NCBI GenBank assembly: GCA_976226885.1
Contig: OZ320317.1
Location: 55,242,001 to 55,306,000, forward strand
Reading direction: 5' to 3'
From: Iphione sp. A-MEVVRFRX5
Taxonomy: Eukaryota
Length of the DNA stretch: 64,000 bases
Every line of letters starts with the position of its first letter. Within the stretch, counting starts at the first letter, position 1. Below, in pieces: positions 28,012 through 59,200 of the stretch. Both the position numbers and the translations under genes were made by a program. The notes under the pieces are model-generated. The model made no database searches, had not been told where the DNA came from, and was given only the letters and a program-made list of their open reading frames with translations.

Positions 28012-28069
28012 GTTTTTCGTAGGTGCGTCTGGAACATCATCACATAGTCATTTCATCATCATCACATAG

Positions 28070-29134: not shown

Positions 29135-30731
29135 AGATACAGGTAGCGGTTGTCATGTGGATACGCTATGTTGTCTTGGTATCCAAACAATATTCAAATA
29201 AACACCTTATTCGACATATATATAAACCATATTGAATGGATTTCGGTTACACAGGTGTGGAAATATGCAATCACAACGTTTTCATCAAGGTAGAGCAACC
29301 GTTTGAAATGGTATTTAGTCAGACAACAGTCATTAAGTGACACTATGGGAGAAAGCCAATCATTACAATGCACCTAAATCCTTAAACATTGTACATATAC
29401 TTTGTTTTATCAATTTAGGTATGTATTCCATATACAGCTGAACCCCATCAGAGTTGCAATATATTCTCATTAATCAGACCCTAACGAAATTACCAATTAT
29501 TTTACACTTTAAAATGTACTACATATCTGGCATTTGCTATCCATAACCATAATGTATTTCAAGCCATTTAAACTTAATTTATATAGAAAATAATCATAGT
29601 TAACCGGATGAGGGAGAATAAAGAAACTGTTAGGCATTAGAGTGTGTATATACAGTACAATGGAAGAGACAACAGAGCACAGAGTGAATAACAATGGTTA
29701 AAAGTAACATACACATGCAGGAAATATGGGCTGTGACATCCTAAAGGAAGTGACAACACAGCGTGGAGTGACTAACATAGGTTAAAAGCAACATACACAT
29801 GTGCGACATGCAGGCCATGGCCTCCTATAAGAAGAGAGGGCAGAGCAACCAACATAGGTTAAAACAGCATTAATTTCTTTACTTTCTACTTAAAAGGGTT
29901 GTACATTTTACTACTATGCAAGTTTTCCCTGCCAGAAGATGCATGGATAGCGATTTCGGCAACCGGATGTTTCATCATCTGTACAAAATAATGGAGGTAC
30001 TCTGGTTAATGCGGTTTGCCTGTAATTCTGTTTGTATGGAATCATTATCACATTTAGTAATATTGACAACACATTTTTGTTTATATCTAAGGTACACAGA
30101 ACTGAACCCAGTTGTAATGGCAAGCATGTCTTAGACAGGGTTCGAACTTCACAATTACCCATTGGCCATTATTTTGTAATTTTTTTTACTGTGTGAGTCA
30201 ACATGTGTTTGTCCCAGGTAAGTAATTGGGAAAATTTATTTTTCGAACCTAGCTTTCAGACTGAGGAAAACATCACGTAGGCCAAAATCAATCCGCTAAT
30301 TGTTTTAGGGGTCAATGTTAAAAAAGCACTTTCACAACAATAATAGTATTTTTGTACAGCACTATATTGAGTTCCCTGCTAAACTACATTTTTAAAAAAA
30401 GACTAAAAACAAGATCCACCTCGGGGCTAGGATTTTCGGAATTATCTAGATAAGACGATTCTATGTACCACTGCTGACTTCCTCTGATTTTTAGTATGCT
30501 CTATGCCGGTGCAACACTAAATCTGACAATAGTGATCAGCTTCTCAACATAGTTTGCACAGATTTCTACTCTGGTTTTAACGTATACCAGTCACAACTTC
30601 TATAGAAAGGTTCTAATTGAAAGGTTTTTGATTCATCATCGAATAACAGTCCTGATAGTGTAGACATTATCAGAGAATAACATTATAAGACTTAATTGCT
30701 CATTGCTCCTAATAACAAAACTATGCCTGTT

Positions 30732-33351: not shown

Positions 33352-34988
33352 CTACTTGTTGTACGTGATGTTGAAGGTGCAATTGTTAAGAGTCGGTGAC
33401 CCCGAGAAAAGGGTATGCAGGATTTCTTCGTTCTTCATAGTATTATGGACTTTATGGACCGTTTGTGTCAGCGGAAAGTCCATATCCGAATCGCCTCCAC
33501 CGCATGCTGCTCCTGCCGACTCCATCTTGATTACCGGCTGACCCACTTTTTCTGGATCAGCTGTTTCACTCTTACTGCCCGCACCATACACGGATAGTGC
33601 ATTCGACATCGTCTTTTTCACGATTTTGCTCGGACTACCCAAGTAATGCTTGAGAGAGGCAGCATTTTTGTGGCCCGTAACTGATTGGATCTACTCTACC
33701 GAAAACCCAGCACGCTCCAACGTTGTCACGCACGTTCGGAGTATGGTGTGGTTAGTGTACTTTTTTGAAAGGCCCGCCTCCTTGCTCATTGTGGCCATCA
33801 TGTTGAATAAGGTGTTGATGCCCACCGGACAGTTGTCGTACCAAGATTTCATTCCTGAGTCGATGAACTTTTTTGGCCTTTGGAAAAACGCATCACAGGC
33901 CGGGTTCAATAGATCCACGTACTTCTTGAAACTCGCCACCGGACATCGACGCGGATCTTCAGGTAGGGCGTACATTGTTTTTTCAACGTCCTCTTCGTCT
34001 TTTTTTAGGCCTGATCTCGTTTTTTCCTGTTCATTGTAACTCATTGTCACAAATTCAAGTCCCGCTGCATCCGTTTCGATTTTGAAAGAGTTGCGTTTCA
34101 GGTAACGCAACCCCTCCCTACCCCTTCGTCCGAAATGAAATAGTAACTCGAAAAACACTTTCCTCTGCAGTCCGGTCGGGGTGTCATTGAAAAGTCTCTC
34201 ATATAAGAGTGAAACATCTTCTGGTTCTATCACTGGCTTGTGACTCGTTTTATCGTTCCCGGTCCACCGGATGCGGGCCATATAGCCATCATAGGCCAGG
34301 TTGGCTTGTCTGAACGCACTGTCTTTCATTATGTTGATATTTCGGCAGAAAGGGGGTCCGACAAGATGACGTTGAATCCCACAGCGTATATTCTTGTAAG
34401 CTGACTTCGAGTACATTTCCAGATCCTTTTTTCGTACACCCGTGTAGAATCTCTCCAGAATGCCAGCGAGTTCACTATCACCGATACCCTCGAACTCCAG
34501 CAGGAGGCCCACATCCGTCAGCCAGTCTGCAAAAATAATTGCACTAAACATTACTATAGGTTATTTCAGGGTGCCCCGCCCCCTTCAAGTAAATACATAT
34601 GGCAACAATACAAACCTTGTAGGATTTTTACAGCCCACTTAGTCTGGTTGACTGTTCCTTTGCGGTTAACTTCCTGCTTTAGCGCGTTCACCTCCTCCTC
34701 TGCTGGCATATAAAAACGACCACTACCAGCCCCCTTAGGTTTTTTCTCAATATTTTCGGAATTCTCCTCCAGATCCATATCTTCTACCGCCAACAAGTCT
34801 AGTCCGATGTTGAAAGTTGGCACCGCCTCACGCTCCAGTTCATCACAGCGTACCGAGTTCTTCTGTCCCGTTAGGACATCCTGTACGTCGCACACATCCA
34901 TTTCAAAACCTTGTGGCCGATATATTTCGGTTACTTTTACGTTCCGTCCATATAAATGGCATATTTCGCCCCTCTTTGGTAGATCCAT
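33352..34988 (-). pseudogene. Crypton DUF3504/KCTD1-like tyrosine recombinase gene, 2 exons (34988-34616, 34526-33352), with in-frame TAG at 33691-33693
   Basis: Intron 34527-34615 (G|GTTTGT...TTTTTGCAG|) joins TKWAVKILQ-D-WLTD. Motifs FYTGVRKKD..Y, HFGRRGRE, CPVASFKKY, WYDNCPVG, YTNH, then after the stop IQSVTGHKNAASLKHY (catalytic H/Y) and C-terminal LNNCTFNI. Confidence 0.88.
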
Positions 34989-36174
34989 CTTGCTATGGCG
35001 GTATATTGCAAATCAATTTGCCCGCTCAAATGGTTGCCATGGTTCTAGTTCCGGTTTCGTATGAACTGCCAATGACCGTTATCCTCTCATAAAGTCGAAT
35101 ATAATTATTGCCGTGATTAGTCTGCCATTTAAAAACGTGCATTTAGTCTCTATCTTTAATATAACCAACATCCTAAATCCCATTAGAACTCTGGGATTCC
35201 CCTTCTATGGCATGTATGAAACAATTTGGGATGGCGCCAAGACCTGCCCAGGAGCGGCTCCTACAGGTCCTACTCTTTTCACCCACCCTGATTCCATTTT
35301 CACTCACTTCCTCCCAGATCGATCTTAGTCAACCTTCACAAATTCCGCTAGGTCCTTTCACCCCTTGTTGCGCTGTGTAAGCCTTAGAATTACTGAGTAG
35401 GCATGTGTGTGTGGGTAGGCACAACGGTACTTATGCACTCTGACACTCAACAATGCTCTTAAACCTACGCTTTGATAAATATATCGTTCTGCCAATGATC
35501 CTTTATACAAATATGTCAGGGTACATATCAAACGATGCCATGCTCACTCACATACACATTCAAACCCCTTTAAAATTTGTCTGTGCATTTCTTGTTTCAC
35601 GGGCGATCCTTATATGCAAAATTATTGAAATGCCAATCTCTTTGCAATAATCTAAACGGACATTTTATATTAGGCAATATGTACTACATCTAAATATCAA
35701 GGATATTTGGGAAAAGCAAATTGCTGCAATACTACTATACTTACTTTGTATGAAACTGGACTACACCTCTCCTCAGTACTGTCACCTGGTGTTTAAGAAA
35801 CATAATGTAATTCACAGTGTCCGTGCTGCGACCGACTAGCGTCAATTCCTAACTAATTGAAACACTCTTGCATTCGGCATCAATGCATTCTGTCGTTTTG
35901 CTTGCGACGCATTCACTGTCATTTAATCTCTGAAGCACGCTAGTTCTGCATCATATCAGCATCATATGAGTACATTCAACCAGGACTTGAAATGTGTGTA
36001 ACACATTCATAACACTGGTATCAATTGAATGTAATGTACTCCATCGGACTTCCTACAAGGATAAGAACACCTGGACGTTCTCCTTCGCAAATGTTTGTTA
36101 AACAGAATTCTACACACATGTACATAAATGTTATATACTGGAAGGAATCTCTCTGACAAAAGACAGGAAATATG

Positions 36175-36380: not shown

Positions 36381-38325
36381 GATTGATTGATTGATTGATT
36401 TCTTTTATTGAGCCTCTCCGTATACAGAGCTGTTCTCGCACAATATTGATGAACAACAGGATGTACAGAATAGATTCAGTATTGGTTTTGTGTACCATTG
36501 CCACGCATTGCAAAATAAACTTCGTATACATCAATCACGTGTTTCCAGTCATCATAACACCCTTGCTTAAGAGATTCATCTGTGTCAGTAGCATATGTTA
36601 ACAGTGTCCCAGTCTACAAAGATTCAGGCAGCTACATACCAGTCCTGCGCACACTTTGCTATGTATGTAAATTGTCCATATACCTTGGGTTTTGCTAGTA
36701 TCATGTAGTGTAGTGCTGCACATACTATCTTGGAATAAGTTACTTCAGTAGTTACATACTTCCACGTCTCATTGTCTGTTTAGGACTGACTCAGCCTTCG
36801 GCACATTGCACAGGTATCGTTGCACTTTGTGTAGTCATCTCAGGAAATAGACCAGATAAGCTCGCTTTGTCACATCAATCTGTGGTCAAACCCTTCAAAT
36901 ATCCAGTAGACCAGAACAACCCACGGTTGCATTACCCCACACAGTACATAATGTCAACGAGTGTCACAGTCTGTCCAATACCTGTCATGTTGCCCCCCTT
37001 CAGCATCACAGTGTGCATCCCATGGCGCTTAATTGCACTGGCTGATCCGGTTTCCTGTTAGTTTCTCCAACTTCTTGAGGCCCTGGGGCAAACCATTCCA
37101 CATTTTTGCCCCCTCATACCTCAGAGATCTTGCATACGCACTGTTTTTGGGTTTCGCCAGTTTGACTCGCGGACCAGTCCCCGTCCTTGTCTGGTGTCTG
37201 GTAGCCATCGGAAACTGTCCGTGGGCGACCAGTCGGTGTACAACCGCCAGCCCCCTAGTGCGGATGATCTCTTCAACCGTCCCAATGCGCAGTATCTCTC
37301 TCAGCCTGACTGCGCTTAGGAAATCTCCCACCTGAAGTGCCATTCTCGAGCACCTATTCAGGTGTATCTGGAGATCTCTGATCAGCCTGGGTTTGCACCC
37401 GAAGTAGACTGATCCATTGTAATTCAGGTGACTTAGTACCAGTGCTTTAAACAGGATGGCGCGGCACTTCATCGGGATTATCTTTTTTGCTCTGGCCAAC
37501 ATAATTGATATCCCCCATGCTTTGGCCTTCACCTGCTTCACACTACTCCTGAAGGTTAGCCCCGGATCCACCAGGTACCCCAGGAGGTTCAGGTTTTCCG
37601 GCCGTTGGATTTTTTGACCGTTCACTGTGAGGTCTAAGTCGAACTTGCTTGCTCTGCCAAGCGCAATGTACTGGCATTTGGCTTCGTTTAAAATGAAACC
37701 ATTCTCATTGCACCAGTTGCTCACCGTCCTTGATGCTGTCTGCGCTACAGCGCGCAGGCGCAGCATGTCACCAGAAGAGCAAACCACAGTTAGGTCGTCC
37801 GCGTAGAGAGTTCCAGTGGCCCCCACAGGCAAGCTCCTTACAATGGAATCCGCAGCTAATGTGAAGGCCAAGGGGCCTAGCACGGAGCCCTGCGGGACTC
37901 CGTACTTGAGATTGCGCACCATTGACTCCCCCTCTCCGCAGCGCACAAACTGGCGCCTGCCACTCAGATAACTCCGCATCGTTTCAATCCATCGACCACC
38001 AATGTTCGCATCCCTAAGCCTCTGGAGTATCAGTTCGTGCTGCACTAAGTCAAAGGCCTTACTAAAGTCGTACGCAATAGCGCACACATAGCGGCCGTTG
38101 TTCATCTCATCCCAGCATTTTGACAGGATTCCGTTTATGGCGGTTTCCGTGCTACGGTTTGGCACAAAACCATGCTGGTGTGCGCCAATAATGCCTTGCT
38201 GAAGCAAGAACGGTCGGAGATGCTATGCAAACCAGGTTTCCCATAGTTTGCCTGGCAGTGGTAGTATTGACACTGGTCGGTAATTACCTACCACTGCCGC
38301 ATCTCCCTTTTTATGTACCGGCAAA
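36381..38325 (-). mobile_element. 5'-truncated CR1/L2-group LINE (RT region, 3' UTR, (AATC)5 tail)
   Basis: PVHKKGD..NYRPVSILP (in-frame TAG at 38223-38225), QHGF, YDFSKAFD, GVPQGSVLGP, YADD, LLGY, C-terminal WNGLP (ORF 37029-38207). Minus-strand AATAAA (36404-36409) is followed by (AATC)5; linking the tail to this copy is inferred. Confidence 0.85.
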
Positions 38326-41289: not shown

Positions 41290-42702
41290 TCATCCCATCT
41301 CTGAGGGATACAGGTAGAGCGTTCCAATCTTAGATACCAGTGTTTATAAAGGATTGGGCATATTTGACTGTCCTAGGCTTCATTTTCATGAGCACCCTAC
41401 CTATACTGTGCCTTGCAGTCCTCAGTCCCTGCTTAGTAAGCCTTGATCTACCATTCTAGCTTTAAGACTGATTCTCTGACTCCTTCCCCTATCCTCCAGG
41501 GCCTCAAGACCCAGTCTCCTTCTCAGGTGCCTAGCTGAAGCTCCCCCTTGGGTTATTGGCTACTACTAGGCTAAGGCACCTATTATTCACCTTGGATTTG
41601 ATATTTGGTTTTCTTGCTATTTCCCTGTAGGCATAAGAGCCCATAGTCGAAGATGGGGCATAGGAAAGCCTTAAATATACGTGTCCTATCGTTATAATTC
41701 AACAAATGAGCGACCTTCGCTAATACCACTGTCCTATGTTTTGTTTTTCTCTTTATCCCATTAGCTAGAGCTGCCCAAGTCAATCCTTGGTCGACTCTGT
41801 ATCCCTACAGATCTACCTCTGTACATTTCTTTAACTTTATCCCACTGTACCTCCAAGTCAAGGTCGATCGGACTAGACTTCCCCAAAAAGATGTACTGGG
41901 TTTTCTGGGTGTTGCGTGAAAGCCCCTGATCTCCACACCATTCTATGATATCCTTTATAGTCCTAGCCAGTTTCAGCTGTAGGGCAAGGATAATGCTCGT
42001 GGAGCAGTAAACAGAGATGTCTGCATAAATTACAGAGTCGAGTATGATCAGACTGGCTGGTGTCAAATTTACTACAAGTGAGAAGAACAGTGGGGCCAGA
42101 TGACTCCTTTGTGGCACACCTACCTTTAGCTCTCTACGAGATGATCTACAATTGTTGCAGCTCATGTACTGACTCCTTCCTATTAAGTATGATTCAAACA
42201 TCTGAGCATAGTGTTGCCAACTCCACAGCTCATCAGGCAGTGCGAAACAACTTGATCAATAAATCAAACGCTTTGGATAAATCAAACATGATTAATCCGA
42301 AGTATTTACCCTCATCGACCGAGGTGCTTGTAGAAATGTTGCAACCACTGTACTAGTCTCCCCCCCTTGTCGGCAACCGTGTTGGCTGGGGAGAAAAAAT
42401 TCTGTTCCTCCAGAAAGGCTACTAGCTGTCGATGTGCTAACCTTTCAATTAATTTCCCCACATATGGGATTATGGAGAATGGACGGTAGTTTTTTACTGT
42501 TGTACTAGCTATTTTTTCAATATAGGACTGACCCCAGACGCTTTCCACTCCTCCAAGAAAATCCCTTGTCTTAAGGAGATATTAATTAGTCTATATAGAG
42601 GGATCAGGTAAAGTAATAAAGCATCTCCCAGCACTATGGAGGACACCCCCTTCATTCCAGTAGGTTTTTTAGATTTAACCTCATCAATTCCTTCCTTAGT
42701 AC
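41290..42702 (-). pseudogene. Degenerate CR1/L2-like LINE ORF2, 3' part (split by the Gypsy insertion)
   Basis: KNYRPFSIIP..KLIERL, FESYLIGRSQ..GVPQRSHLAPLFF, YADIS, C-terminal SF..WNALP; many stops and frameshifts. Confidence 0.8.
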
Positions 42703-43577
42703 TGTAATTAGCGTGTTTAATTCTCCACTTGGCAGTATCCAGCTATGACTGCTAGTATCCTGGCTTAGTTGCCTTACTAGTATTGCTCCACTAGGTAATC
42801 CTCAAGCCCACCCTTAAGGTTGCTCCAAGTGGTTTTGTGTTCCTATCATTCCCTGAAGAGACAAGTGCCACAACGTAATCCAAGTTCAGACTGACTTTAT
42901 TTGCCACACTGGGCTCTTATTTATAGCAATCCACAGTGTCATGTGATCAGGCCATGTATCAATGTATGGAATAAAACTGCTACAACATGTTCAGTGTCAC
43001 TCTGTTCCACCAATCAATGCACAGGCAAAAGCTACAAAGTAATAGGGGCCTGGATTACCAGGGCCCAAGGTCACCCCTAACTTTTTCTTTGCTATGAATA
43101 ACGGTGGTGCCACGGTTCTTTCTTAAGTCCAGCCTTTAGGGTCACAGAGTGCACCTAATCTAGCCGTGGCACCACGACTTATCTTATTCAACTGTAATAC
43201 CGAGGTCACCGAGTACATCTTATCAAACTGTGGCACCACGACTCTGTACACTTATTACCAGTACCAGGGTCACCGAGTACACTCCATCTGGCCGTGGCAC
43301 CACGATTTATCTTATTCAACTGTAATACCGAGGTCACCGAGTACATCTTACCAAACTGTGGCACCACGACTCTGTACACTTATTACCAGTACCAGGGTCA
43401 CCGAGTACACTCCATCTGGTCGTGGCACCACGATTTATCTTATTCAACTGTAATACCGAGGTCACCGAGTACATCTTACCAAACTGTGGCACCACGACTC
43501 TGTACACTTATTACCAGTACCAGGGTCACCGAGTACACTCCATCTGGCCGTGGCACCACGACTTATCTTATTCTACA
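42703..43577 (-). repeat. 3' LTR (875 bp) containing a 128-bp (2 x 64-bp) tandem array
   Basis: Matches 52889-53763 with 2 substitutions seen by eye. Confidence 0.97.
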
Positions 43578-43590
43578 CTCTCCCCTCCTT
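43578..43590 (-). promoter_or_regulatory. Polypurine tract
   Basis: AAGGAGGGGAGAG directly abuts the 3' LTR. Confidence 0.9.
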
Positions 43591-44072
43591 AAAACACAGT
43601 CCCCCTCGTGAAACAGGAGTCAGGGTACTTACCATCTAGCCGGGCATATCGGGGAGTCCTCCTTCAACTTCTGGGGTAGATATAGTCTTATAAGTTGTTG
43701 GCCCCCCCCCCCCGTGCTCCCTGATTGGGGTCAAACAGTCCATCCTTGAATAGATACTCAGGTTTCAATTCTTCCTTATTTTTGTGAGGTACAGTCCTCT
43801 ACTTTTGGCCTTAACTCTCTTGTGTAGCCACCCCTCACAGAGGGTGAAATCCAGTGGTCAAAAATTTTTTTTTTTGGAGGTACAGTCCTCTTTTGTTTCC
43901 TGCTCACGAACATCCAGAATAGCAATCCCCCATTGGGGGCAGGAGTACAGCTTGCTTACCAAGCAACAAACAAAGAACCTTCAAAATATATTTCTTTTTT
44001 TTTTTTTTTTGGATACAGTTCCTTTTATGCTTTCCTTCTAAAAGATTAGCTTAACAGTGACTCATCCCTTCT

Positions 44073-45464
44073 TTACTCTGTAGAACCTTCTCGGGCGTCA
44101 CCCGCCTCGGTGCTTAACTCCTCCTCTTCATCATCTCCCCAGACGTCCTCAAGACTGAGGAGGGACTGCAGGGGCGGCGCATGGTTACAAATGTCCGCTA
44201 AGGTGGGGTGTCGGGCTTGATGAAGTCGATGAGCCTCCTGGGCCTGCTGGGTCCACTGGAGGAGCTCTGTGTTTACCCGGCGGGGTCCTCGGGAGGGTCC
44301 GGGTTGGGTGTCGCGCAGGGCGGCTTCGGCGGCTTCAATGGTTTTGTTATTGCGAGTGAGGAGGTCGGCCGGGTCCCCCCACTCGTTGGCTGTCGGTATT
44401 TCCAGTCCCGGCAGCAGAAGAGCAGGTCGTTTTCTTAGGGGGCCTAGCAACGTCCCTGGCAGCCGGTCCCCCTCCTCGGCAAGCTGAAGCACCCACGCCA
44501 GCGAAGCACTCGTCATCATGCGTTGAGCTGGTGTCATCTCCCCCCAACAGGGTGGCGGCCAGGTAATCGTCGGGGGAAGGCGCACAGCCGCTGGCTCGAA
44601 ACGGCTCCTCATCACGGGTATCCTCGGATGGGCGACTCCATCCAGCATGTCGCGGACTAACCTAGTGGCGGGGTCAACCCACCCAGGGGGGACGTCCGCA
44701 CGGGCGAGGCGGACCAATCGCCCTTCCAACAACAGTGGGAGGTTACCAGCAGCAGTTGGGTGGTCGGTCTCTCCAGTGGCGCCGGTATCCCTAACACCGA
44801 CCCCTTCTAGTTGGGCAGTGGCACCTTCTGGCTCGGCGGATGGCCCGGCCCGAGGAGCGGCCTCCCAGGAAGGGCCTGGCTGAGGTGAGCCAACAGGGCG
44901 GTGGGCATCCTCTTCGGAGTCCGGTGTCGGAGGTAGTCGTGGGGTTGCCAATTCCAATGCCCTTTCAGGTTGAGGATCAGCTAGATGGCATTTCCGTAGC
45001 GGTAGAGGGGCCGGGGCCCTCCGCGATGAGGCAGCCAGCATGGCCTCGGCTTCCTCTGGTCCGAGGTAGTCTCCCCGCTGGCGTAACTCTCGGGCCCACA
45101 GAATAATTTCGGTGATCTCGTCATCGGGAGCCTCAACTGTCGGCGCCGGGTTCGCATCATATAAGCGGCGATAGGGGCGCTCCACCATCCCCAGGTTCAC
45201 CGCCCATGGATGGTACCGGCGGTGGTGGGATACCCAGGTTTGGTCCTCGCTGAGTGTCTTCGGACACAGAAAACAACGGACAAAACGCCTGCGCTTTCCT
45301 TTATGAAATTCGTCGTCGTGGCGCTTCATGGAGTCGCCAGGGTAGAAGGGGCGTCGCTTCCCAGCGACCTCACACTTGGGGCAGAGCTTGGTCCCCTCCG
45401 GGAGGGGGTCGTCCTTGTCCAGGGTGCGCGGGAGAGTGGGGCCGTCGATCTTATGGCGAGGCAT
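44073..45464 (-). CDS. Gypsy accessory ORF (463 aa from ATG 45464): two N-terminal C2H2-type zinc fingers, Pro/acidic middle region, acidic tail
   Basis: CPKC-x17-HDDEFH and CFLC-x12-HHRRYH. The intact 1.4-kb ORF sits at the env position but shows no signal peptide or TM segment. AGA-ATG context. Confidence 0.8.
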   Translation of the reverse strand: MPRHKIDGPTLPRTLDKDDPLPEGTKLCPKCEVAGKRRPFYPGDSMKRHDDEFHKGKRRRFVRCFLCPKTLSEDQTWVSHHRRYHPWAVNLGMVERPYRRLYDANPAPTVEAPDDEITEIILWARELRQRGDYLGPEEAEAMLAASSRRAPAPLPLRKCHLADPQPERALELATPRLPPTPDSEEDAHRPVGSPQPGPSWEAAPRAGPSAEPEGATAQLEGVGVRDTGATGETDHPTAAGNLPLLLEGRLVRLARADVPPGWVDPATRLVRDMLDGVAHPRIPVMRSRFEPAAVRLPPTITWPPPCWGEMTPAQRMMTSASLAWVLQLAEEGDRLPGTLLGPLRKRPALLLPGLEIPTANEWGDPADLLTRNNKTIEAAEAALRDTQPGPSRGPRRVNTELLQWTQQAQEAHRLHQARHPTLADICNHAPPLQSLLSLEDVWGDDEEEELSTEAGDAREGSTE

Positions 45465-46305
45465 TCTGGCCGCGGTGCCACCGTTTTTTAGGGTCCAGGT
45501 GTTTCGGGGTACCACGGTCACACACGGCGAAAACAAGGTTTAGGCACACAGATCCCGTGTAGATTACGTATCACAGGAGAATAATAACAATCCTGGGAGG
45601 GCAATCTTATTCAAAGTGAAGGAATTACCTGACGTCTCACGACCGGTCCGCCCGTGGTGCCACGGATTTTTCTTGTCGCTTCGCTGGGGCTCGATGTAGG
45701 TTTTCTCCTCCTTCCACGAAATTGGCAGATAGATCTTTGCTTTCACCTTTTCCTGGTACAGAGTTGACCGGGGGCCCTGTCTGTCCTGTTCCGGGAGAAA
45801 CACGGGAGGGGGGGGGGACAAATCCAACAGTCGATGCTGATCTTCTGGAGCAAACCGTGGTGCCGCGACTTCTCCCAAAGTTTTCGTTTTTATTCGCAAA
45901 CGTTCCTGCCCGTGGCACCACAGTTATTTTAACCCTTTTCTTCTCTTTACGCGGTTTAAACTTGTCGTGCGTTAATTTTAAGTCACCTCCACCCTTCACT
46001 TTTATCCGTGGCACCACGGCTATTTTTCCTCGCAGCCGGATCCAGAGCGAGGCAGACGCGGATGTTGACGTTATCCATTTCCGGCCCAGCCCCACTCGTG
46101 GTGCCACGATTCGTTACGTGATGTTCTTCCTGTAATATTTCCTGTCTCAATCCACAAAAGTTCCCCGGGGCGTGGCACCACCGTTATTCATGACTTGTTC
46201 CTCCTCGTTGCGTGTCGAATCCGTTTCCCCGCGGCGTAGTTCACAAATTGCGTCATAAGATTTTCGGCCCGTGGCACCACGATTATTTTTCTGGCCTGCG
46301 GCAGC

Positions 46306-46313
46306 TATATAAG
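46306..46313 (+). promoter_or_regulatory. TATA box of the antisense gene inside the Gypsy
   Basis: TATATAAG, an Inr-like TCACTC about 30 nt downstream, then Kozak ATC-ATG-G at 46373. Confidence 0.7.
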
Positions 46314-46372
46314 GGGGCGCTGCACTCGACCCGCCGTCACTCGCTGACTCGGCCTCGACGAGGATTGTCATC

Positions 46373-46766
46373 ATGGACTACTGGCCACCTGCCTACTTGA
46401 TGGGATACCCCCCCATGGAGGACAGGTAAGCTTCCCTACCTCAGTGTATTTATCTAGAGGGGTTAACTGGAGAGCCCCCCCTCTTGCTTCCTCCCTCCCA
46501 GGGTAGGGCCTACCCTTATGGTTGGGGGGTGAACCTCCCCCTTCCTCCCTCCAATGGGGTGTACCTCCCCTGCAAGCCCCCCCTTTCCTGCTCACCAGTG
46601 GAGGTTCTCTCCTTTTACCCTTGCCTACCAAGTGTTGTCAGAGACTTTACCTGTTGGGATGGTTGCAGTTGTGTTTGCTGTTACAAGATTCCACCCTCTC
46701 TTGTTTTCAGGTGTGGCAGCCATATTCTCCCGGAGTTGGTCTGGGTGAGTCCAATCTTCTTCTTCC

Positions 46767-46804
<38 letters not shown>

Positions 46805-47541
46805 CATCGCTGCTCTCTTCCTCTTTTAGATCTCAGCCCCCGGACTGGTACTACCGGGCGCTGGACATCGGCACCCCGGGGCCGACAATCAGGATCTTCG
46901 GCCTCTACCCGATTCTTACAGAGCCACTGTTTGTCCCAGCCCCCGGCACCATCCGGCTCTTTGGGCCGAACCATCGGGTAGATGTCTCTGTCTACCCCCT
47001 TGAGCCATCAGTCGTCGACCCCCGATCTTTCACGTCACCTTCGTCCGTTCCAAGGAGCCCGTAATACGCGCCCCGCACGGAAGTGGTCTCCCCGGAGATC
47101 AGCCCCTGGATGGTAACATCGTACTTCACCACGCTGGGTGATCCCCCCGAGCCGTCTCCTCGCTGGTACCGGGGGGGGTCTATGACGCCGCCCGGCCTCT
47201 CACCGGCCGCTTCATCCAGCCGTTCTTGGTCTCCAGGGAGCTGGACCACCGACCGGTTGGACCCCTGGGATCCGCTCTCCAGTACGGACTCCGGTCGCCC
47301 GAGTTCGGCCGGGTCTATCAGCCTGCTGGCGGACGCTCTCTTCGGGCCGTGCTCGCCCTCATCTTCTTCCAGTGGCACTACTCAAGACACGCCTTCACGC
47401 CCCACTCCGGTTGGCTCACCGGCTACCGGCCCAGCACTCGGCAGGATTCTGTTGGATGACCTGCCCGACGATATTCTGCGGGACTGGTTTCCCGAGGTGC
47501 AACCCGGGGACTCGGCCAGCTATCCGATCATCTTAGAGTAG
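46373..47541 (+). CDS. Antisense spliced accessory gene of the Gypsy (exons 46373-46425, optional 46711-46744, 46830/46837-47541); Pro/Ser-rich product of about 255 aa with in-frame TAA at 47062-47064
   Basis: Donors AG|GTAAGC and TGG|GTGAGT; acceptors TTGTTTTCAG| and T-run..CTCTTTTAG|. Exon 1 + exon 3 gives MDYWPPAYLMGYPPMED-R-SQPPDWYYRALDIG..., in frame with ORF 47083-47541. Confidence 0.62.
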
Positions 47542-47650
47542 GGAGGCCGGACTATATACTTCCGAACTGTACATATCATACTTCCGAACTGTACATATCG
47601 TCCTCTAGTATATGTGTTCTGTACTCCAGACTGAAAATACGTTACTCTGT

Positions 47651-47656
47651 AATAAA
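47651..47656 (+). terminator. Polyadenylation signal of the antisense gene
   Basis: AATAAA 110 nt after the TAG, followed by a GT-rich downstream element (TGTGTTCAGTGTT). Confidence 0.6.
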
Positions 47657-48397
47657 TTGTTCTTTTATACCTTGTATACTTGTGTTCAGTGTTCCGTCTA
47701 TTACTGTAGACTATAACTCACTGGTTTTTTACTTGGTGATCATTGACCGTCTTTTCTCCCCTTCATCTAGAGGACAAGGACCTCACCTTGGCTTCACTTC
47801 TAGAGGATATGGAGCGTGACTTGGCTCTTCTTCTACCAGAGGACAAGGACCACATCTTGGCGTTACTTCCAGAGGGAACGGCCCGCATCTCGGTTTCCTT
47901 CTCTCTGTCTCTTCTGGGCTCTTTCGAACTCCCGTTCTGAGTTCCAGGAGGTCCACATCTCCTTACCATTTCCCCCCCAACTCCTCTTGACCAGTGCTCT
48001 TGCAGGGTGTTCAGTCATTTTCTCCCTCCACGGAGATTTTCAGGTGCCCTAGGGGATGGTCGCCTCCCCCCATGAACCTTTCCGGGTTTCCAGCTCGCGT
48101 CTCGGGGCGTTCATCATTCCTCCCCCAGGAGCCTCTTTCTCTTGTTGCACAAATTGCAACTTCAGGTGAGCTCCTCGTACCTCCGACCATATTTCCGGCA
48201 CCTGCAGGGATCCGTGTCTCCCTCTGCCCTGGGCTGTTTTGAGTGTCTACGCACCCTCGGGCTGCCCACCTCGCCCTCTCCTGGGACTTTCAGGCATCTT
48301 GGTACCTCAGGCTTCCCATGTCACCTACCCTGAACATTTTTCAAGAGCACTTCAAGAGATGGGGGTCTCCCGTTCGCCGATTCGCCGAGGCATCTTT

Positions 48398-51300
48398 CTA
48401 TAACCCCTCCTCCTTCGAATCGTCTGTCCCTGCCCGGTCTCCGTCCGTCGGGAGATGGGCTCGCCGCCAACTGACTATCCACCGTGGTAGATTCCCACTG
48501 CAGTAGCGCCGCAAGCGGTTGCAATGAACTACCTTCGGTCTCGCCTTTCGCGTGCGTTGAACGACATACCGTGCATCGTCCAATCGTTTGACAACCAGCC
48601 AGGGTCCAACCCAGGGGAAGTAGGTCTTCAGGCTTTGGCCTCTTGGGGGTTGGGCTTCGTGTAGCCAAACGACGTCCCCTTCCCGAAGTTGAGTTCCCAC
48701 GACCCTCCGGTCGTACGCCCGTCCCTGGGTCTTAGCAGCTCGTTGGAGATGGTGTCGCACGGTCTTGAAAGCGACTTGAAGTCGACGACTCACTTCAGCT
48801 ACCCTCTCCGGGAGGGGTCGCTCATCGGGACAATGTTGCGGGAACCCAGCCCAGGCATGTACCGGTAGCACGACCTCTCGTCCGAACATTAGGAGGTTGG
48901 GGGTATACCCCGTACTAGATTGCGGGGAGGCCCTATATGCCATCATGAGGTAGGGTAAGGCCTCATCCCAATCGTTCTGTGTCTCATAGCAGTGCGCTTT
49001 CACCATGCGCCCAACAGTGTGGAAACTCCTCTCTATAAATCCATCGCTCTGTGGGTGACGCGGGGTCGTACGGGTCTTCTTAATTTCCAGAAACTGGCAG
49101 AGTGCTGTTAGGACCTCACTGCAGAAGTTCGTGCCCTGGTCGCTGTGGATTTCCAAGAAGCACCCATATCGCAAGATAACTTCCTCAGCAAGGAGCGTAG
49201 CCACCCGGCCAGCCTTCTGGTCCGGCATGGCGAAAGCCTCCAACCACTTCGTAAAATGGTCACCCACCATCAGTATGTATTTGTTTCCCCGCCGAGTCTC
49301 AGGCAGGGGGCCGGCCACATCCATGGACCACCTCTCCATTGGTTCTCCCGGCAGGTAGGTCACTAATGTCGTTTGGGGCTTGTACGGGTTGACATTCAGC
49401 AGGGCGCAATGACAGCGGCGGCAGAAGGCCTCAACCTCTCGCCTCATCCCAGGCCAATAATAGGGGAGGGCAATCAGGTAGGTGGTACGATCTGTTGCCA
49501 AGTGACTCCCCGTGCGACCTGCATGCACTTCTTTGATGGCTGCATCTCGTCGGCTGGCGGGGAGTATAACCTGTAGCCTAGACGGCTCATCCCCGATCCC
49601 ATACCAGCGGCGTTGTAGGAGTCCGTCATGCACCACTAGCCGGTCCCACTGTCTCCAGAGGGCTTTAGCGCAGGCGGGCAAAGCCGAGACCTTGTCCCAC
49701 AAGGGCCGGTCATTCTCGTTCTCTTTCAGTCACAGTACAGGCCCTATTGCTTCGTCTAACAGCTGCTCCCGGCGCAGATCTCGTGAGCCAGCGTCAGTGA
49801 TTTGACTTCGTGTGACCACCCGTACCGTGGCTGATATGGGCTCCTCTCGCTCCAGGTGAGGCTGTTTGCACTGTCTGCAAATGCGCCGAGAGAGCGCATC
49901 TGCGTTTGAATTCAGGCGACCGGCCCGATGCACGAATTGTACTTGGTACTGGCCGATTCTCTCCAGCCATCTGGCTAGTTGTCCCTCAGGGTCCTTTATC
50001 CTCGTCAGCCAGCTCACCGCCCCATTATCAGTGCGCACAGTGACGTCTTGCCCATACAGGTAGAAATGAAAATGCTTGAGTGCGGCCACCACGGCCAGCA
50101 GTTCCCTTCTCATGACGCAGTACCGCCGCTCGGCCTCACTGAGGCTCCTGCTGAAGTAAGCTAGCACAACTTCTTCGCCCGACTGCTCTTGAGCCAGGAC
50201 GGCCCCCAGGCCAACATTGCTGGCGTCGGTGTCCAGGTAATACCTGCCTTCTGCATGAGGATAACCAAGGACCGGGCTGGTGCTGAGTGCGCGTTTGAGG
50301 CTCTGGAAGGCAGCCTCTTCTTGGGAGCCCCAGGAAAATCTTACTCGTGAGCTGGTCAGCCGGTTAAGCGGGGCTGCTAGATCGGCGAACTGGGGAACAT
50401 GTCGGCGATAGTAAGAGCAGATCCCAAGGAAAGCACGGACGTCTGTCGTGCATCGTGGGGTTGGCCACTCAATGATGTCTTTTGTCTTCACAGGGTCAGT
50501 AGCTACTCCTTTTTGCGACACCACATGGCCTAGAAAGCTGACTTCCTCTAGGAACAACTGACACTTCGTAGGCTTTAGTTTCAGGCCGGCACTGGCGATG
50601 CGGCTCAGTACATGGTCCAAGCGACACAAGGTCTCGTCAAAGTCCCGACCAAACACCAGAATGTCATCCAAGTACACCAGGCATTGTTCCCAGGCTAAAC
50701 CACGAAGCACAGTGTCCATCAAGCGTTCGAACGTGGCCGGAGCATTCACCAGACCGAATGGCATTACGGTGAACTCATACAGGCCCACAGACGTAGAAAA
50801 GGCCGTCTTCTCTTGGTCATCGGGGTGCATTCGTACTTGCCAGTACCCCGACGCCAGGTCTAATGAACAGAAATAGCGAGCTCCGGCCAGGGTACTCAAT
50901 GAGTCGTCAATTCTCGGTAGGGGGTATGCATCGACCTTAGTCTGCTGGTTGAGCTTTCGATAATCTACGCAGAACCGGGTGGTGCCGTCTTTCTTTCGCA
51001 CCATGACCACTGGGCTGGACCAAGGGCTATTACTCTCCTGTATCACCCCCAAAGTCTTCATCTCTTGTACTAGCTCCCGCTCCTCCTTCCTGCGTGTCAA
51101 CGGGAGGCGTCTGGGAGGTTGCTTGATGGGGTGGGGGTCGGTCAGGTAAATTCGGTGTTGAACGATATCGGTCCTCCCCAGGTCCCCCTTTGTCTGCGCA
51201 AACACGGCCGCATGTTTCCTGAGCACCTTGGCTAATGCTTCTTGTTCTTCTTGCTCCAAGCGCGGGGCGGTCTGAGCTAGCAAATTCTTTAACACTGCTT

Positions 51301-52054
51301 CCACTTCCCTCCGAACAGCACAGACTCTAGCCGAGTACCCTCCTTCTTTGTTCTCTAGGCAACTGGCAGGGTAACCCATTGCCACCAGGGTACCCTGCGT
51401 CAATGTAACTTCTTGGTTTTGGAGATTCCACAAAGGTAATGCAGTTCTGACAACACTTCGAATCCCAAAGATCCCTCTTCTCAATTGGTCCTCCTCTACT
51501 CCCTCCACTAGGAAGGCATCACCACCCCCATTAGTTAGAGGGACTGCTATCCCCTCTCCCGGGGGAAGGGTAACGTCATGGGCTAAACGCAAAGGGACCC
51601 GCTCTCCCAGAATCTGTCGGGCTCCTATCCCCGGGCCAAATCGAACCCTCCCCTGTGCTAAATCTATAACTGCCTGGTGTTGGTTGAGGAAATCACTCCC
51701 CAGTAGACCCTCTTCCCCAATGTTGGCAAACAGGAAAGGATGAGTAAACTGTTGACCCGCTATCTCAACCTCCAGAATCTCTCGGCCCAATGTGGGAATA
51801 ACGTGCCCCCCTGCCCCAGTAATACGGACATCCCCGCCTTCACCATCTAGGCCAGGGACCACCCCCGGGTTAATAATGGAAACTTCAGCCCCCGTGTCAA
51901 TGAGAAACAAGTATTTGTCACCCCTCACGCTTACCTGCAAATGTGGCCCCTGGCCTTGTTCCATTATCTGCCCCGTAGGGGTCTGTTCAGCCAAGCCCTC
52001 CTGGCCTACTGGGCTGGCTGCTGGGCGTTTCCCTGGGTAGGGGCCTGTGGGCAA
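48398..52054 (-). pseudogene. pol: Gypsy Pol (PR-RT-RH-INT) with a single in-frame TGA at 49730-49732 upstream of the integrase
   Basis: LIDTGA protease, YLDD RT, DTDAS RNase H, integrase D (SMDVAGP), D (HSDQG), E (GFIER) and GPW motif. ORFs 49730-52054 and 48398-49702 are in the same frame. Confidence 0.93.
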
Positions 52055-52857
52055 TCCCGCTTAAAGTGGCCTTGTTGTCCACATTGGTAGCATCCCGTAA
52101 ATCGCGGTTTCCGAGGTTTTCCCTCCTCCTGGGCCTTCTCTCCTTCACGGAACTTGCGTAATTCCTGCGCAATGATCTCCTCCACTTCCTTCTTCCAGGT
52201 CGGAGTGACTGGGGGAGCGGGCGGCTGTTGTACCACATTAACTGTCTTCGCCCGGAACCGCTCTTGGGTTTCCACCACCTGGATAGCATTGTCAAGGGTG
52301 GTGCATTTTGCTTCCAGGCATTTGAGATGCAAGGAGTCCGCCAAGGCCCTCTGAAAGGCCGCCACGGCTGCCAGTTCCCTGGTCTCCCCGGTTACATCGG
52401 GATAAGCTGTGCGAACTAGCCTCCTTACCCGGTCGGCCAGGTCTCGGATGTCCTCGTCCTTCTGTCGTCTCACTCCGGACAGTTTCTGCATCGCTACCAC
52501 CCGATCCCTGCGTCGGCCGAATCGCCGCTCGAGGGCTGCCACCCTTGAGGCGTAATCTCTCTTGTCATCCGCGGGTAGGTCTCCGTAGAACATGCGTGCT
52601 GTCCCGGTGAGCGACAAAGTCAGAGCCGAACATTTGGTATCCTCGCCCCAACGGCATGCGTCCGCCCACTCGGAGAATTGGCCAATCCAGCTGTCCCAAT
52701 CAACAGTCTTCCCATCGAAGCGCTCGGGTTTCAGGGTGTTCATCTTCAATGGCTCCTCTGGGGCAATCTCAAAGTGTTCGTCTTCTTCCTCGGCGGGTGC
52801 AGGACTAGTCACCCGAATCTGAACCTCATCATCCACTGAGACATACGCTGTAGCCAT
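52006..52857 (-). CDS. gag: Gypsy Gag (283 aa)
   Basis: KPERFDG..W..W..QF capsid-like start; CYQCGQQGHFKRDC zinc knuckle. Confidence 0.93.
   Translation of the reverse strand: MATAYVSVDDEVQIRVTSPAPAEEEDEHFEIAPEEPLKMNTLKPERFDGKTVDWDSWIGQFSEWADACRWGEDTKCSALTLSLTGTARMFYGDLPADDKRDYASRVAALERRFGRRRDRVVAMQKLSGVRRQKDEDIRDLADRVRRLVRTAYPDVTGETRELAAVAAFQRALADSLHLKCLEAKCTTLDNAIQVVETQERFRAKTVNVVQQPPAPPVTPTWKKEVEEIIAQELRKFREGEKAQEEGKPRKPRFTGCYQCGQQGHFKRDCPQAPTQGNAQQPAQ
52027..52033 (-). promoter_or_regulatory. -1 ribosomal frameshift slippery site G GGA AAC with a downstream stem-loop (51988-52020)
   Basis: The heptamer is in the gag frame inside the gag/pol overlap, pol is in the -1 frame, and a 6-nt spacer precedes CAGCCAGCCC...GGGCTTGGCTG. 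Confidence 0.8.
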
Positions 52858-52867
52858 CCTGTCTGGG

Positions 52868-52887
52868 GAATCCCACTTCTGACACCA
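52868..52887 (-). promoter_or_regulatory. Primer-binding site complementary to the 3' end of tRNA-Leu(CAA)
   Basis: TGGTGTCAGAAGTGGGATTC begins 1 nt after the 5' LTR. The eukaryotic tRNA-Leu(CAA) 3' end is GAATCCCACTTCTGACACCA. Confidence 0.9.
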
Positions 52888-52888
52888 G

Positions 52889-53763
52889 TGTAATTAGCGT
52901 GTTTAATTCTCCACTTGGCAGTATCCAGCTATGACTGCTAGTATCCTGGCTTAGTTGCCTTACTAGTATTGCTCCACTAGGTAATCCTCAAGCCCACCCT
53001 TAAGGTTGCTCCAAGTGGTTTTGTGTTCCTATCATTCCCTGAAGAGACAAGTGCCACAACGTAATCCAAGTTCAGACTGACTTTATTTGCCACACTGGGC
53101 TCTTATTTATAGCAATCCACAGTGTCATGTGATCAGGCCATGTATCAATGTATGGAATAAAACTGCTACAACAAGTTCAGTGTCACTCTGTTCCACCAAT
53201 CAATGCACAGGCAAAAGCTACAAAGTAATAGGGGCCTGGATTACCAGGGCCCAAGGTCACCCCTAACTTTTTCTTTGCTATGAATAACGGTGGTGCCACG
53301 GTTCTTTCTTAAGTCCAGCCTTTAGGGTCACAGAGTGCACCTAATCTAGCCGTGGCACCACGACTTATCTTATTCAACTGTAATACCGAGGTCACCGAGT
53401 ACATCTTATCAAACTGTGGCACCACGACTCTGTACACTTATTACCAGTACCAGGGTCACCGAGTACACTCCATCTGGCCGTGGCACCACGATTTATCTTA
53501 TTCAACTGTAATACCGAGGTCACCGAGTACATCTTACCAAACTGTGCCACCACGACTCTGTACACTTATTACCAGTACCAGGGTCACCGAGTACACTCCA
53601 TCTGGTCGTGGCACCACGATTTATCTTATTCAACTGTAATACCGAGGTCACCGAGTACATCTTACCAAACTGTGGCACCACGACTCTGTACACTTATTAC
53701 CAGTACCAGGGTCACCGAGTACACTCCATCTGGCCGTGGCACCACGACTTATCTTATTCTACA
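52889..53763 (-). repeat. 5' LTR (875 bp)
   Basis: Offset 10186 bp from the 3' LTR; TGTAATTAG...TTATTCTACA. Confidence 0.97.
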
Positions 53764-54400
53764 GTACATCTTCCCTCACAGGCTCTTCCATCTAATCACC
53801 AGTCACTTCGGCACATAGAGTTGCTTTCGGGGGATTTGCAAGTGCTAGCGACCTAGTGGCTGTGACAAAAATGTCTGGTGCGACATGAGAGTCGATTTCC
53901 TCTCCATCTTCAAGCAGTCGAATTGGTCTGGGTACTTTTGTTACCTCTAACACAGTTCTATTCAGTACCTCCCAATAGTCCTTAGAGGACCTACATGATG
54001 GCAGTTGTTTCCCAACATGAGCACATTTCACTTTTCTAATTTTACTCCTCACTAGGTTTTTGTAGAATTGCTAACTCGCAAACTGTCTATGCACCCCTCT
54101 GATCTATAGACTTTATTGTACGCCTGTTGTAGTGAGTATAGCCCTGTCAACCATAACATCATGCAGTGACACTGCATAATGCATGCCATATACACCATAT
54201 GCATGATGGATACTTCACGGGAAGGCACGATGGACATGCATATGGATTGGGATGGTCTTCAGACCTTGGCCTCTTGGTTGAAACCATGTGACACAAGGCA
54301 CTCCAATTGACCGATCGCTTTTTGTGAGTGACAGTTGAGTCTAGCCAACCACAGCACATCCTACAAAAAGCGTGGGAACCTTGAGCATAGACAAACAAAG
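53764..54400 (-). pseudogene. Degenerate LINE ORF2, upstream (EN-RT linker) part, continuing across the Gypsy insertion
   Basis: FYKNLVRSKIRKVK..KDYWEVL linker-like segments. Sequence on either side of the GTAC duplication reads as one LINE. Right boundary approximate. Confidence 0.6.
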
Positions 54401-56933: not shown

Positions 56934-59200
56934 CTAGTAATCCTTACATGATAGATCTAGTGATAATATTTTAATACACTGATTGAACTCATGTGGGTCT
57001 GTAATATTCCTAAATAAGGGATCGAGCTTGTTCCAGAGATCAGCACCCATATAGATAGCACTGTTTTTATACAGATTACTCTTGGGTGTTTCTTGTTTTA
57101 TAACTGGACCATCCATAGACCTAGTGCCAGTATCAGATTTGAGTGGTAAAAGGTTAATATTTACCGACCTAAACATTGTGTCGAGCATAAAATAACAGCG
57201 TCGAGTATAGGTACTTTGAACTCCAAGGTTTTGATGTAAGTCTCTGGTACAAATGCCACGTGTCTTTAAGTATCTTTTAGATTACATTCTAAATATAATC
57301 CTCAGTGCCCTGTTTTGCATGATTTGAATCTTATCCAGCATCTTCTTACTGCAGGTTGATAGGTAGATAGTACGGTTGTCAATGATTGGTTGAATCATGA
57401 CTTTATAAACGGTTAGGGCTACATCAGGAGGAATGAATCCTTTTACCTTATTCAGGAGATACATCTTAGTTGACAATTTTTTGCATAAAAGTTTTGCCTC
57501 ATGCTCGAATCTAAGTTGACTATCTAGTGTCACACCTAAATATTTGTAGGTTTCAACTTGTTCAAGCATCTTATTATACAAGGTAAGTACTAAATTATTG
57601 TCTTGTTTTCCCTTTTTGTTGCTAATTAGCATAACCTTAGATTTGTCCGTATTAATAGCCAGTCTGTTGTGGTTGCACCAGTTCTCAACTAAGGTGCAAG
57701 CTATACTTAGTTTCCTGTTGAGTTCCTCTAGTGAGTTGCTCGTGGTGTAGATCACAGTGTCATCTGCGAAAAGTACAGCCAGTTCATTAATGAACCTGGT
57801 TATACCATTTATGTATAATGAGAAAAGGAGTGGGCCTAAAGTTGAGCCCTGAGGAACACCACAACTGATTGGCAGGGGGTTTGAGAGCACTCTGTTACAC
57901 AGTACTCTTTGCTGTCTACCACTCAGGTAATTTTCAAACCAATCGTGTGCCGCACCATCTATTGCAAATTCCATACGTAACTTATCAAGTAGGATACCAT
58001 GATTCACAGTATCGAAGGCCTTTTTTATATCCAGAAATAGCAGACCTGATAATTTGTTTTCATTAACAGCAAGATATTGATCATTTAATACTTTAATGAT
58101 TGCAGAATGCGTAGATCTCTGATGTCGGAATCCAAATTGGGCCTGAGATAGCAGTGAATCTTCTTCTAAGTATGCATGTAGCTGATTATATATTAATTTT
58201 TCAAGGATTTTGGCAAATAATGGCAGTAAGGAGATTGGCCTGTAGTTGTTTGGGTCCAGTGATGAACATGACTTATGAAGTGGAATAACAACAGCCGATT
58301 TCCAGGCATTTGGAATTGACCCAAGCTGAACTGACTTGTTTAGTAGCCTTGTCAGTTGGTTGATTGATTGACCCATTATGATTTTTAAGAATCATGTATT
58401 GATTTCTGGAACGCAGGATGCCTTGTTGGTATTTATTTTCTTGATTAGATTAACAACATCATTGCAGCTAAACTCAGTTCTATGAATGCTGTTGGTATTA
58501 GTCTCAGAAGAATGAGATTGAGCAGTATAAGATGGGAGTGGGACAGAGTTCATGATGTTTCGACCACACAAGGAGAAGTGTTTGTTAAATGTTTCAGATA
58601 CTGTGTCTCTCATATCATCATTATTGTGAAGTTTTATAGTATTTTTACTACCTTTGCTGATTCCGAGAATTGGTTTTAGATTTTGCCACATTTTTCCCGG
58701 ATAATTCTTATTTTTATTAATCACCCTCTTTATATGGAACTCCTTGTGCAGTCTCATGCTTTTTATTATATCATTACATAATTTTCTCGAAATGTTCCAG
58801 GTGTCTTCATCTTTTCTCTCTTTGGCCTTTTTAAGATAGTAGTTTTTAAGTCTTATTTGTTTTATCAATTGTTTTGTAATCCATGGATTTGTATTATTTT
58901 TAAAATTACAACTTTTTGGGGGAAAGAATTTGTCAGCTGTTGAGTGTATGTTATTCAAGTAGTTTTCCCAAGCTTTTTCAATATTGTTATTGTTATAAAG
59001 CTGATACCAATTTAATTCATTCAAGTAGTCACGTAGTTCCAGAGTGTCATAACTCTCATACCCTGTTCTATAATGTATACGACTGTTACTCATATTCATT
59101 GATGTGTTTTTAGTTTTTTTCTTAATAATAGAAGTGGCATAGTGGTCAGATAGATTAATTCTGAGGACACCCGTAGTACTTATGTATTTTATATTCGAGA
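56934..59200 (-). pseudogene. CR1-group LINE ORF2 (EN C-terminus, linker, RT, C-terminus) with nonsense mutations
   Basis: LSDH endonuclease motif at about 59150; NPWIT, NYRPISLLP, QFGFR, DIKKAFD, GVPQGSTLGP, FADD, YLGV, WNKL. ORFs 58392-59099, 57282-58376 and 56934-57188 are one frame broken by TGA (58392) and TAA (57282). Confidence 0.9.

Follow-up and report, generated by a model that had tools for sequence, protein, structure and literature searches.

The 64-kb stretch of DNA analysed here, referred to as the window, contains a Ty3/gypsy LTR retrotransposon on its minus strand (Table 1). Consistent with this assignment, we found LTRs with TG..CA ends, a short target duplication, a primer-binding site, a polypurine tract and the gag-pol order, and the Pfam domains follow the gypsy arrangement, with gag followed by a pol that runs PR-RT-RH-IN. 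The 4-bp target duplication GTAC flanks the element (42699-42702 and 53764-53767), the primer-binding site is presumably tRNA-Leu-like, and the slippery heptamer GGGAAAC lies inside the gag/pol overlap. Given that the two LTRs (875 bp each) were mismatched at only 2 of 874 compared positions, the insertion is young; one of the two differences falls within a motif copy (53547), and they are too few to interpret. The pol of this copy is interrupted by a single in-frame stop (49730-49732). At least 120 relatives of pol were found, with 41-61% identity among the matches listed; the species named among these listed matches were frogs, a pseudoscorpion, insects, a sea cucumber and an oyster, the exceptions being two rows labelled as a bacterial MAG and one insect erranti-like virus. 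The host is probably an animal. The element was apparently inserted in a decayed LINE-type RT copy (LINE-type RT ORFs at 37029-38222, 41761-42742 and 57282-59225). The interval between pol and the 3′ LTR holds two head-to-head units, a sense ORF encoding C2H2 zinc fingers (hereafter ZnF) and a plus-strand antisense unit.

Table 1. Coordinates of the element and of its features in the window.
Feature	Position	Strand	Details
Ty3/gypsy LTR retrotransposon	42703..53763	-	TG..CA ends; 11,061 bp
5′ LTR	52889..53763	-	8 motif copies at 53289-53746; TATA at 53111, initiator TCAGTC 33 nt on
Primer-binding site	52870..52887	-	
gag	52006..52857	-	CCHC knuckle
pol	48398..52060	-	PR-RT-RNase H-integrase
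Antisense transcription unit	46373..47656	+	ATG 46373; introns 46426-46710 and 46745-46829; AATAAA 47651
Antisense core promoter	46306..46342	+	TATATAAG at 46306; initiator-like TCACTC
Internal motif cluster	45471..46281	+	9 copies
ATG-free ZnF leader (candidate)	45465..46075	-	two introns predicted from splice signals alone (45628-45466; 45986-45786)
Extra ORF (ZnF), 463 aa	44073..45464	-	two C2H2 fingers (aa 28-85)
Polypurine tract	43578..43589	-	
3′ LTR	42703..43577	-	8 motif copies at 43103-43560; TATA 42925; AATAAA 42901

The extra zinc-finger ORF, the antisense unit and their promoters

The ZnF ORF is genuine. Its frame comprises 488 stop-free codons, compared with a maximum of 438 in 500 shuffles, and its codon-position GC content follows the order GC1>GC3>GC2, the same as in gag and pol. 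After the fingers, the protein has a Pro/Ala-rich middle, a predicted helical C-terminal part and an acidic tail. The Cys2-His2 ligand spacing is present in the tandem fingers, of which finger 2 is atypical; the fingers were below Pfam detection, and no Pfam family was found in the protein. A word search that scored 8000 candidates of 254-811 aa gave no homologue at E≤0.001. Among 1.84 billion proteins, there was a single match, the multi-C2H2 protein P0121, which was confined to the fingers (E 2e-6); the helix residues D2, S3 and R6 of finger 1 (the numbering being our reading) are common to the P0121 fingers. Moreover, 5 of the 6 rows of weak PDB matches (E 0.08-5.6) were C2H2 proteins. Neither the word search nor the search of 1.84 billion proteins returned a homologue past the fingers. 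An Atlas search with the ZnF protein gave nameless clusters at 0.92-0.94, for which the recognition score did not reach the threshold, and the same search with aa 235-445 gave nothing. Two single-sequence structure models had pLDDT values of 38 and 37, too low for use.

The earlier note on this DNA had described the region between the ZnF ORF and the antisense unit as a divergent promoter. On the antisense side this description held, in that a TATA box is followed by an initiator-like TCACTC at a spacing of 33 nt, equal to the TATA/TCAGTC spacing of the LTR (as taken from the 3′ LTR copy). A sense-side promoter is putative: no perfect sense-strand TATA occurs in 45465-46340, and the two 1-mismatch candidates in this interval are both without a TCAKT initiator. 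The ZnF gene may therefore be expressed by splicing of the LTR transcript and not from a promoter of its own. An ATG-free stretch of 614 nt precedes the ZnF start (the most extreme of the 64 trinucleotides, p 3e-4, or ~0.02 when corrected), and the control region contains 3 minus-strand ATGs compared with 13 expected. A strong donor is present at 45628 on the minus strand, and an AG-free run of 127 nt ends just before the ZnF ATG (p 0.017). The ATG-free stretch, the donor at 45628 and the AG-free run, which are indirect signs, suggest a sense leader; if this leader starts near 46075, then 6 of the 9 internal motif sites would lie within it. A pyrimidine tract and an AG near 45786 could equally accept a splice from the LTR transcript. 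One of the candidate leader introns in the control region also contains an AATAAA (45894, minus strand). Further away, at 47669 on the minus strand, a perfect TATA is followed by TCAGTC at a spacing of 37 nt, compared with 33 nt for the other two promoters, and overlaps the poly(A) region of the antisense unit; it may be an additional sense promoter or may have arisen by chance. Five ACGT bZIP-type cores lie in 45564-46255 (5.5 per kb compared with 0.9-2.8 elsewhere), and several bZIP-type half-sites (TGACG, TTACGT and TTGCGT) were noted in the same interval.

The antisense unit has two consensus splice donors (46426 and 46745) and acceptors at 46710 and 46829. Its frame runs to 47541 and is interrupted by a TAA at 47062-47064, and its longest open frame, 158 codons, is within the shuffle range. 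None of 1931 candidates was a homologue of this frame at E≤1, and no Pfam family, hence no TRP28 domain, was found in the ORF. Given the open frame within the range of shuffles, the internal TAA and the lack of a homologue, the antisense product may be a non-coding RNA, its coding status being uncertain. The end of the frame (47445-47538) is acidic with LL/WF residues and resembles an activation motif by eye. Intron 2 contains a poly(T) run of 37 nt (46768-46804), which is poly(A) in the genomic RNA.

A polar palindromic motif in the LTRs and the internal control region

The core of the motif is the 12-mer CGTGG(CA/TG)CCACG, and mismatches were counted against CGTGGCACCACG or its reverse complement. 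All nine start coordinates listed in the earlier note proved exact: four copies in the internal cluster have no mismatch (45653, 46007, 46097 and 46270), three have one (45856, 45911 and 46171) and two have two (45471 and 45505). The counts in 45465-46373 (909 bp) at ≤0, ≤1 and ≤2 mismatches were 4, 7 and 9, when 1000 dinucleotide shuffles of the region gave means of 0, 0.007 and 0.095 and maxima of 0, 1 and 2, respectively; the enrichment against a shuffled background that had been proposed as a check was thus borne out at ≤1 mismatch by 7 copies compared with 0.007 expected. As a blind control, the commonest 10-mer occurred 6 times, when no 10-mer occurred more than 3 times in any of 500 shuffles. 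These data establish that the motif cluster is real and far beyond chance. Each LTR carries 8 copies, of which 7 lie in a 64/128-bp tandem array and 1 is TATA-proximal. Elsewhere in the element, no copy was found at ≤2 mismatches. The ~53 kb of flank within the window contained no copy at ≤1 mismatch, in agreement with the earlier observation of no full 12-mer outside the element, and 2 copies at 2 mismatches (19868 and 20329). The distances given previously were also right, the first copy starting 7 nt from the ZnF ATG at 45464 and the last ending at 46281, 25 bp before the antisense TATA at 46306. Motif copies are located directly upstream of two TATA boxes, at 24 bp and about 177 bp.

The homology among the internal copies continues for ~8 nt past the 12-mer on one side only, giving an extended site of ~20 bp that consists of the core CGTGG-YR-CCACG and a one-sided tail R-Y-T-W-T-T. 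On the plus strand, T makes up 56% of the 8 bases that follow the core on its 3′ side, compared with 28% in the background, and 0 of 20,000 random draws reached the observed share, whereas the mirror flank is only 11% A; moreover, the tail is position-specific (p≤0.0004 in composition-preserving shuffles). When the sites were scored by leave-one-out, the plus orientation was preferred by 8 of the 9 internal sites (one of them marginally), with 45505 narrowly minus, and the T-rich tails face the antisense TATA in 8 of 9 copies. The centre dinucleotide is CA in 4 internal sites, TG in 4 and TA in 1, with no CG, and is independent of the tail. The motif had been reported to occur in both orientations; this holds for the central dinucleotide, but the extended site is polar (8/9 plus), and with polar tails the statement describes just two bases. 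The first CpG of the site is retained in all nine internal copies.

A profile was built from the 9 internal sites. Its best match outside them was the TATA-proximal LTR site, read toward the LTR TATA, which scored 28.9 and outranked 7 of the 9 training sites, compared with 11.5 for the best non-site in the window. The orientation of this site to the LTR TATA is the same as that of the internal sites to the antisense TATA. The tandem LTR copies are of mixed polarity, with 7 of 8 scoring plus when both flanks were used and 5 of 8 scoring minus with the tail alone. Three further properties were considered and rejected, namely helical phasing of the sites (best p 0.034 among 12 tests), a hidden coding role of the motif, which can be translated as VVPR/VAPR in some frames (171 codons in the longest open frame, p 0.15), and a CpG island, for which the masked observed/expected ratio of 1.04, compared with 0.32 in the LTR, is weak given values of 0.92-0.95 in some coding windows.

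Candidate binders of the motif

We consider it probable that the motif is a protein-binding DNA site, whichever protein may be the binder. The earlier note had proposed a shared trans-acting regulator; the confinement of the motif to two non-coding control regions supports a shared regulator, but the sequence is equally compatible with one from the host and one encoded by the element. In the scheme that we infer, from protein binding and dimer formation to the identity of the binder and the sign of its effect, a double-stranded-DNA site of ~20 bp, made up of two inverted RCCACG half-sites and a one-sided A/T tail, would have gained copies in U3 by tandem duplication and would have spread across the internal control region, allowing a single factor to act jointly on the LTR promoter and the internal promoter (at least the antisense one). 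This factor would most likely be the ZnF protein of the element, bound as a dimer and working as a transactivator or anti-silencing factor like Tas, VANC or TnpA, and the copies in the ZnF gene's own leader (45471-46007) would give feedback.

The two-finger C2H2 protein of the element is put forward as the binder tentatively. It is favoured by the restriction of the motif to the LTRs and the intergenic region, by the high profile score and matching orientation of the TATA-proximal LTR site, by the equal TATA-to-initiator spacing in both promoters, and by the existence of a real ZnF ORF whose fingers match C2H2 proteins. Moreover, a two-finger protein acting as a dimer would fit a pair of inverted 6-bp half-sites, and the copies that flank the start of ZnF would fit autoregulation. 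The yeast C2H2 proteins Met31 and Met32 carry two fingers. They recognise TGTGGC with an A-rich 5′ flank, according to the available text of PMC3737730. The string AAACTGTGGC is exact in three motif copies of the 3′ LTR. The likeness to Met31/32 is an analogy and not a test. Against the ZnF protein as binder are the atypical finger 2 and the absence of Pfam families, the recognition code of zinc fingers, which predicts one G of the half-site and nothing further, the structure models, which give no dimer domain at their low pLDDT, the mixed polarity of the LTR array, and the stops in both the pol and the antisense frame of this copy. A wider proposal, which we regard as rather unlikely, is that an env-less, probably animal Ty3/gypsy element independently evolved a circuit of the complex-retrovirus kind. 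A captured C2H2 pair would bind a palindrome that is private to the element and has been amplified in its LTR and internal promoter, and would activate or de-silence the element in trans; a spliced antisense gene arising in the same region would counterbalance it, as in an on/off switch of the Tax/HBZ or Tas/Bet type.

Host factors are common binders of repeated motifs in LTRs, and it is quite possible, if less than probable, that a host transcription factor (a dimer or a zinc-finger array) binds the motif and confers tissue- or stress-specific co-expression, as in the Sirevirus repeated-motif model, with the ZnF ORF doing something else. All of the cis evidence would fit a host factor equally well. 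Given the five ACGT cores, host factors probably act in the internal control region anyway. However, ERSE and ERSE-II (whole window), UPRE (element) and Runx (42703-46400) were rejected as the identity of the motif, with 0 hits to their consensus patterns, and no title on such a binding site was among the matches listed for the motif strings in the open-access full-text literature. REST, the G-box and NF-I were dropped as well, on the assumption that their arrangement or flanks differ. In the accessible part of PMC2829016, the palindromes of Sireviruses are located in the LTRs and upstream of the env-like gene, and no element-encoded binder is reported, which is in keeping with a host factor.

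It is distinctly improbable that the copies were left behind by an old tandem array, or by template switching from LTR to internal sequence, as relics that have no current function and whose CA/TG centres are deaminated CG. A fixed polarity would be expected from tandem descent, and one LTR class and site 45856 have 8 contiguous flank bases in common (p 0.009, 1 of 5 tests). The spacers, described previously as non-repetitive, gave no internal self-hit and no LTR match better than E 0.34 in masked blastn, and 1 of 15 spacer pairs had p<0.05 (uncorrected); the sole hint of an old duplication is a weak in-register similarity at +21..+50 (p 0.02-0.04 for 7 sites, 0.12 for 9 sites). Neutral decay would not yield cores that are 83-100% identical between spacers at background. 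In addition, CG is the centre of none of the sites, yet the first CpG is kept in all nine internal ones, and a 21-nt identity between 43103 (minus) and 46171 (plus) is not beyond the consensus expectation (p 0.39).

An action of the motif in RNA, as a small hairpin or as a Rev/RRE-like export or packaging signal bound by the ZnF protein, is very improbable. C2H2 fingers can bind RNA, the polar sites are all on one strand of the genomic RNA, and the core is able to form a stem of 4-5 bp with a 4-nt loop. However, 5 of the 9 internal copies carry arm substitutions without compensation, the loop is found as both reverse complements, the fold is no better than that of shuffles (z -0.83, 20 shuffles), and the LTR copies lie in U3, upstream of the TATA. 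On these grounds, a double-stranded-DNA site is much more likely than an RNA element; the region also had no Rfam match. Least probable of all is that the cluster serves, without activation, as an insulator or boundary shielding the genomic transcript from antisense interference, for which the Su(Hw) array of gypsy is a precedent and which co-oriented, irregularly spaced sites with A/T tails inside a transcribed region would fit, but copies immediately upstream of two TATA boxes would not.

Comparison with known systems

The regulatory reading, in which one protein would bind the motif in both control regions, was compared with known systems. According to the available text of PMC2829016 and PMC4728375, the repeated motifs of Sireviruses are palindromes with a variable centre that are clustered before the LTR TATA and upstream of an env-like gene. 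The palindrome studied here is likewise short and variable at its centre; it is repeated many times ahead of the TATA in the upstream LTR, and further copies precede an extra 3′ gene and reach its start. With 8 copies per LTR and 9 internal copies, the arrangement matches the Sirevirus layout (8-32 copies per element in those texts). However, Sireviruses are described there as plant Ty1/copia elements with a CGG-CCG core and an env-like extra gene, the function of the motifs being untested, whereas the element studied here is Ty3/gypsy, with named pol relatives that are mostly animal, a GTGG-NN-CCAC core, a polar tail, a C2H2 ORF and an antisense unit. Membership in the Sireviruses was rejected, given the gypsy domain order and the absence of a CGG-CCG core.

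The foamy virus protein Tas/BTas, in the parts of PMC4929722 that were available, is an element-encoded DNA-binding protein that requires dimerisation and acts on the LTR and on the internal promoter of its own gene, and the single regulator proposed here for the LTR and internal promoter would be analogous. Foamy viruses are Retroviridae with env, and the two BFV probes described in that text do not share a palindrome present in many copies; Tas is proven to bind its sites, whereas binding is predicted here. Excerpts of the reports on VANC of VANDAL (PMC5735166) and TnpA of Spm (bioRxiv 10.64898/2026.08.24.746577) describe a dense, family-specific motif in non-coding regions that is bound by an element-encoded accessory protein. 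The motif studied here is similarly co-oriented, dense, element-specific (as judged on 64 kb) and partly tandem-amplified, but the elements in these excerpts are plant DNA transposons with non-palindromic motifs of 8-10 nt and unrelated proteins (TnpA being HTH); no homology of the ZnF protein to VANC or TnpA was detected, with 0 Pfam families and matches to C2H2 proteins only.

For the antisense unit, the accessible text of PMC11963269 and PMC7264820 describes antisense accessory ORFs of Retand/Grande and an antisense RNA of micropia as units transcribed from internal promoters. In these gypsy elements, too, the antisense unit lies between pol and the 3′ LTR; compared with Retand as described there, the unit studied here has no TRP28 and lies head-to-head with a sense C2H2 gene, and the tandem array is in the LTR and not in the internal region. 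Two routes to the expression of env in Oikopleura Tor elements, an internal promoter and splicing from the LTR, are both reported in the available part of PMC4402516. Tor elements are animal, gypsy-type and have a 3′ gene with the same two options for expression as the ZnF gene, but that gene is an envelope glycoprotein, and no shared palindrome is reported in that part of the paper. The extra ORFs of rotifer elements are enzymes or env-like in the accessible text of PMC5408684, which does not mention zinc. Neither the motif itself nor an animal gypsy element that encodes a C2H2 regulator was reported among the top matches in the open-access literature.

Extra ORFs are common in LTR retrotransposons; their function is unknown and regulatory roles are guessed, according to the available text of two reviews (PMC7264820, PMC11963269). 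Here, a candidate protein and a candidate target site occur together, and because both are in one element, the regulatory guess is directly testable. If the ZnF protein is the binder, then a gypsy element would join the plant DNA transposons and the foamy viruses, for which sequence-specific self-activation has been shown; with a host factor as the binder, the element would be a convergent case of the Sirevirus layout. The element is a known transposon control architecture in a new form, with an unusually testable candidate for a self-encoded regulator.

Other elements were also observed in the window. A DIRS/Ngaro-type tyrosine-recombinase retroelement at 24954-29219, with minus-strand gag-like, RT and recombinase ORFs and split direct repeats, carries 0 motif copies. 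A Crypton-like DUF3504 ORF and an adjacent second ORF lie at 33691-35012, and a MITE-like 47-nt inverted repeat (89% complementary) at 17263-17439 is partly repeated at 29902-29945.
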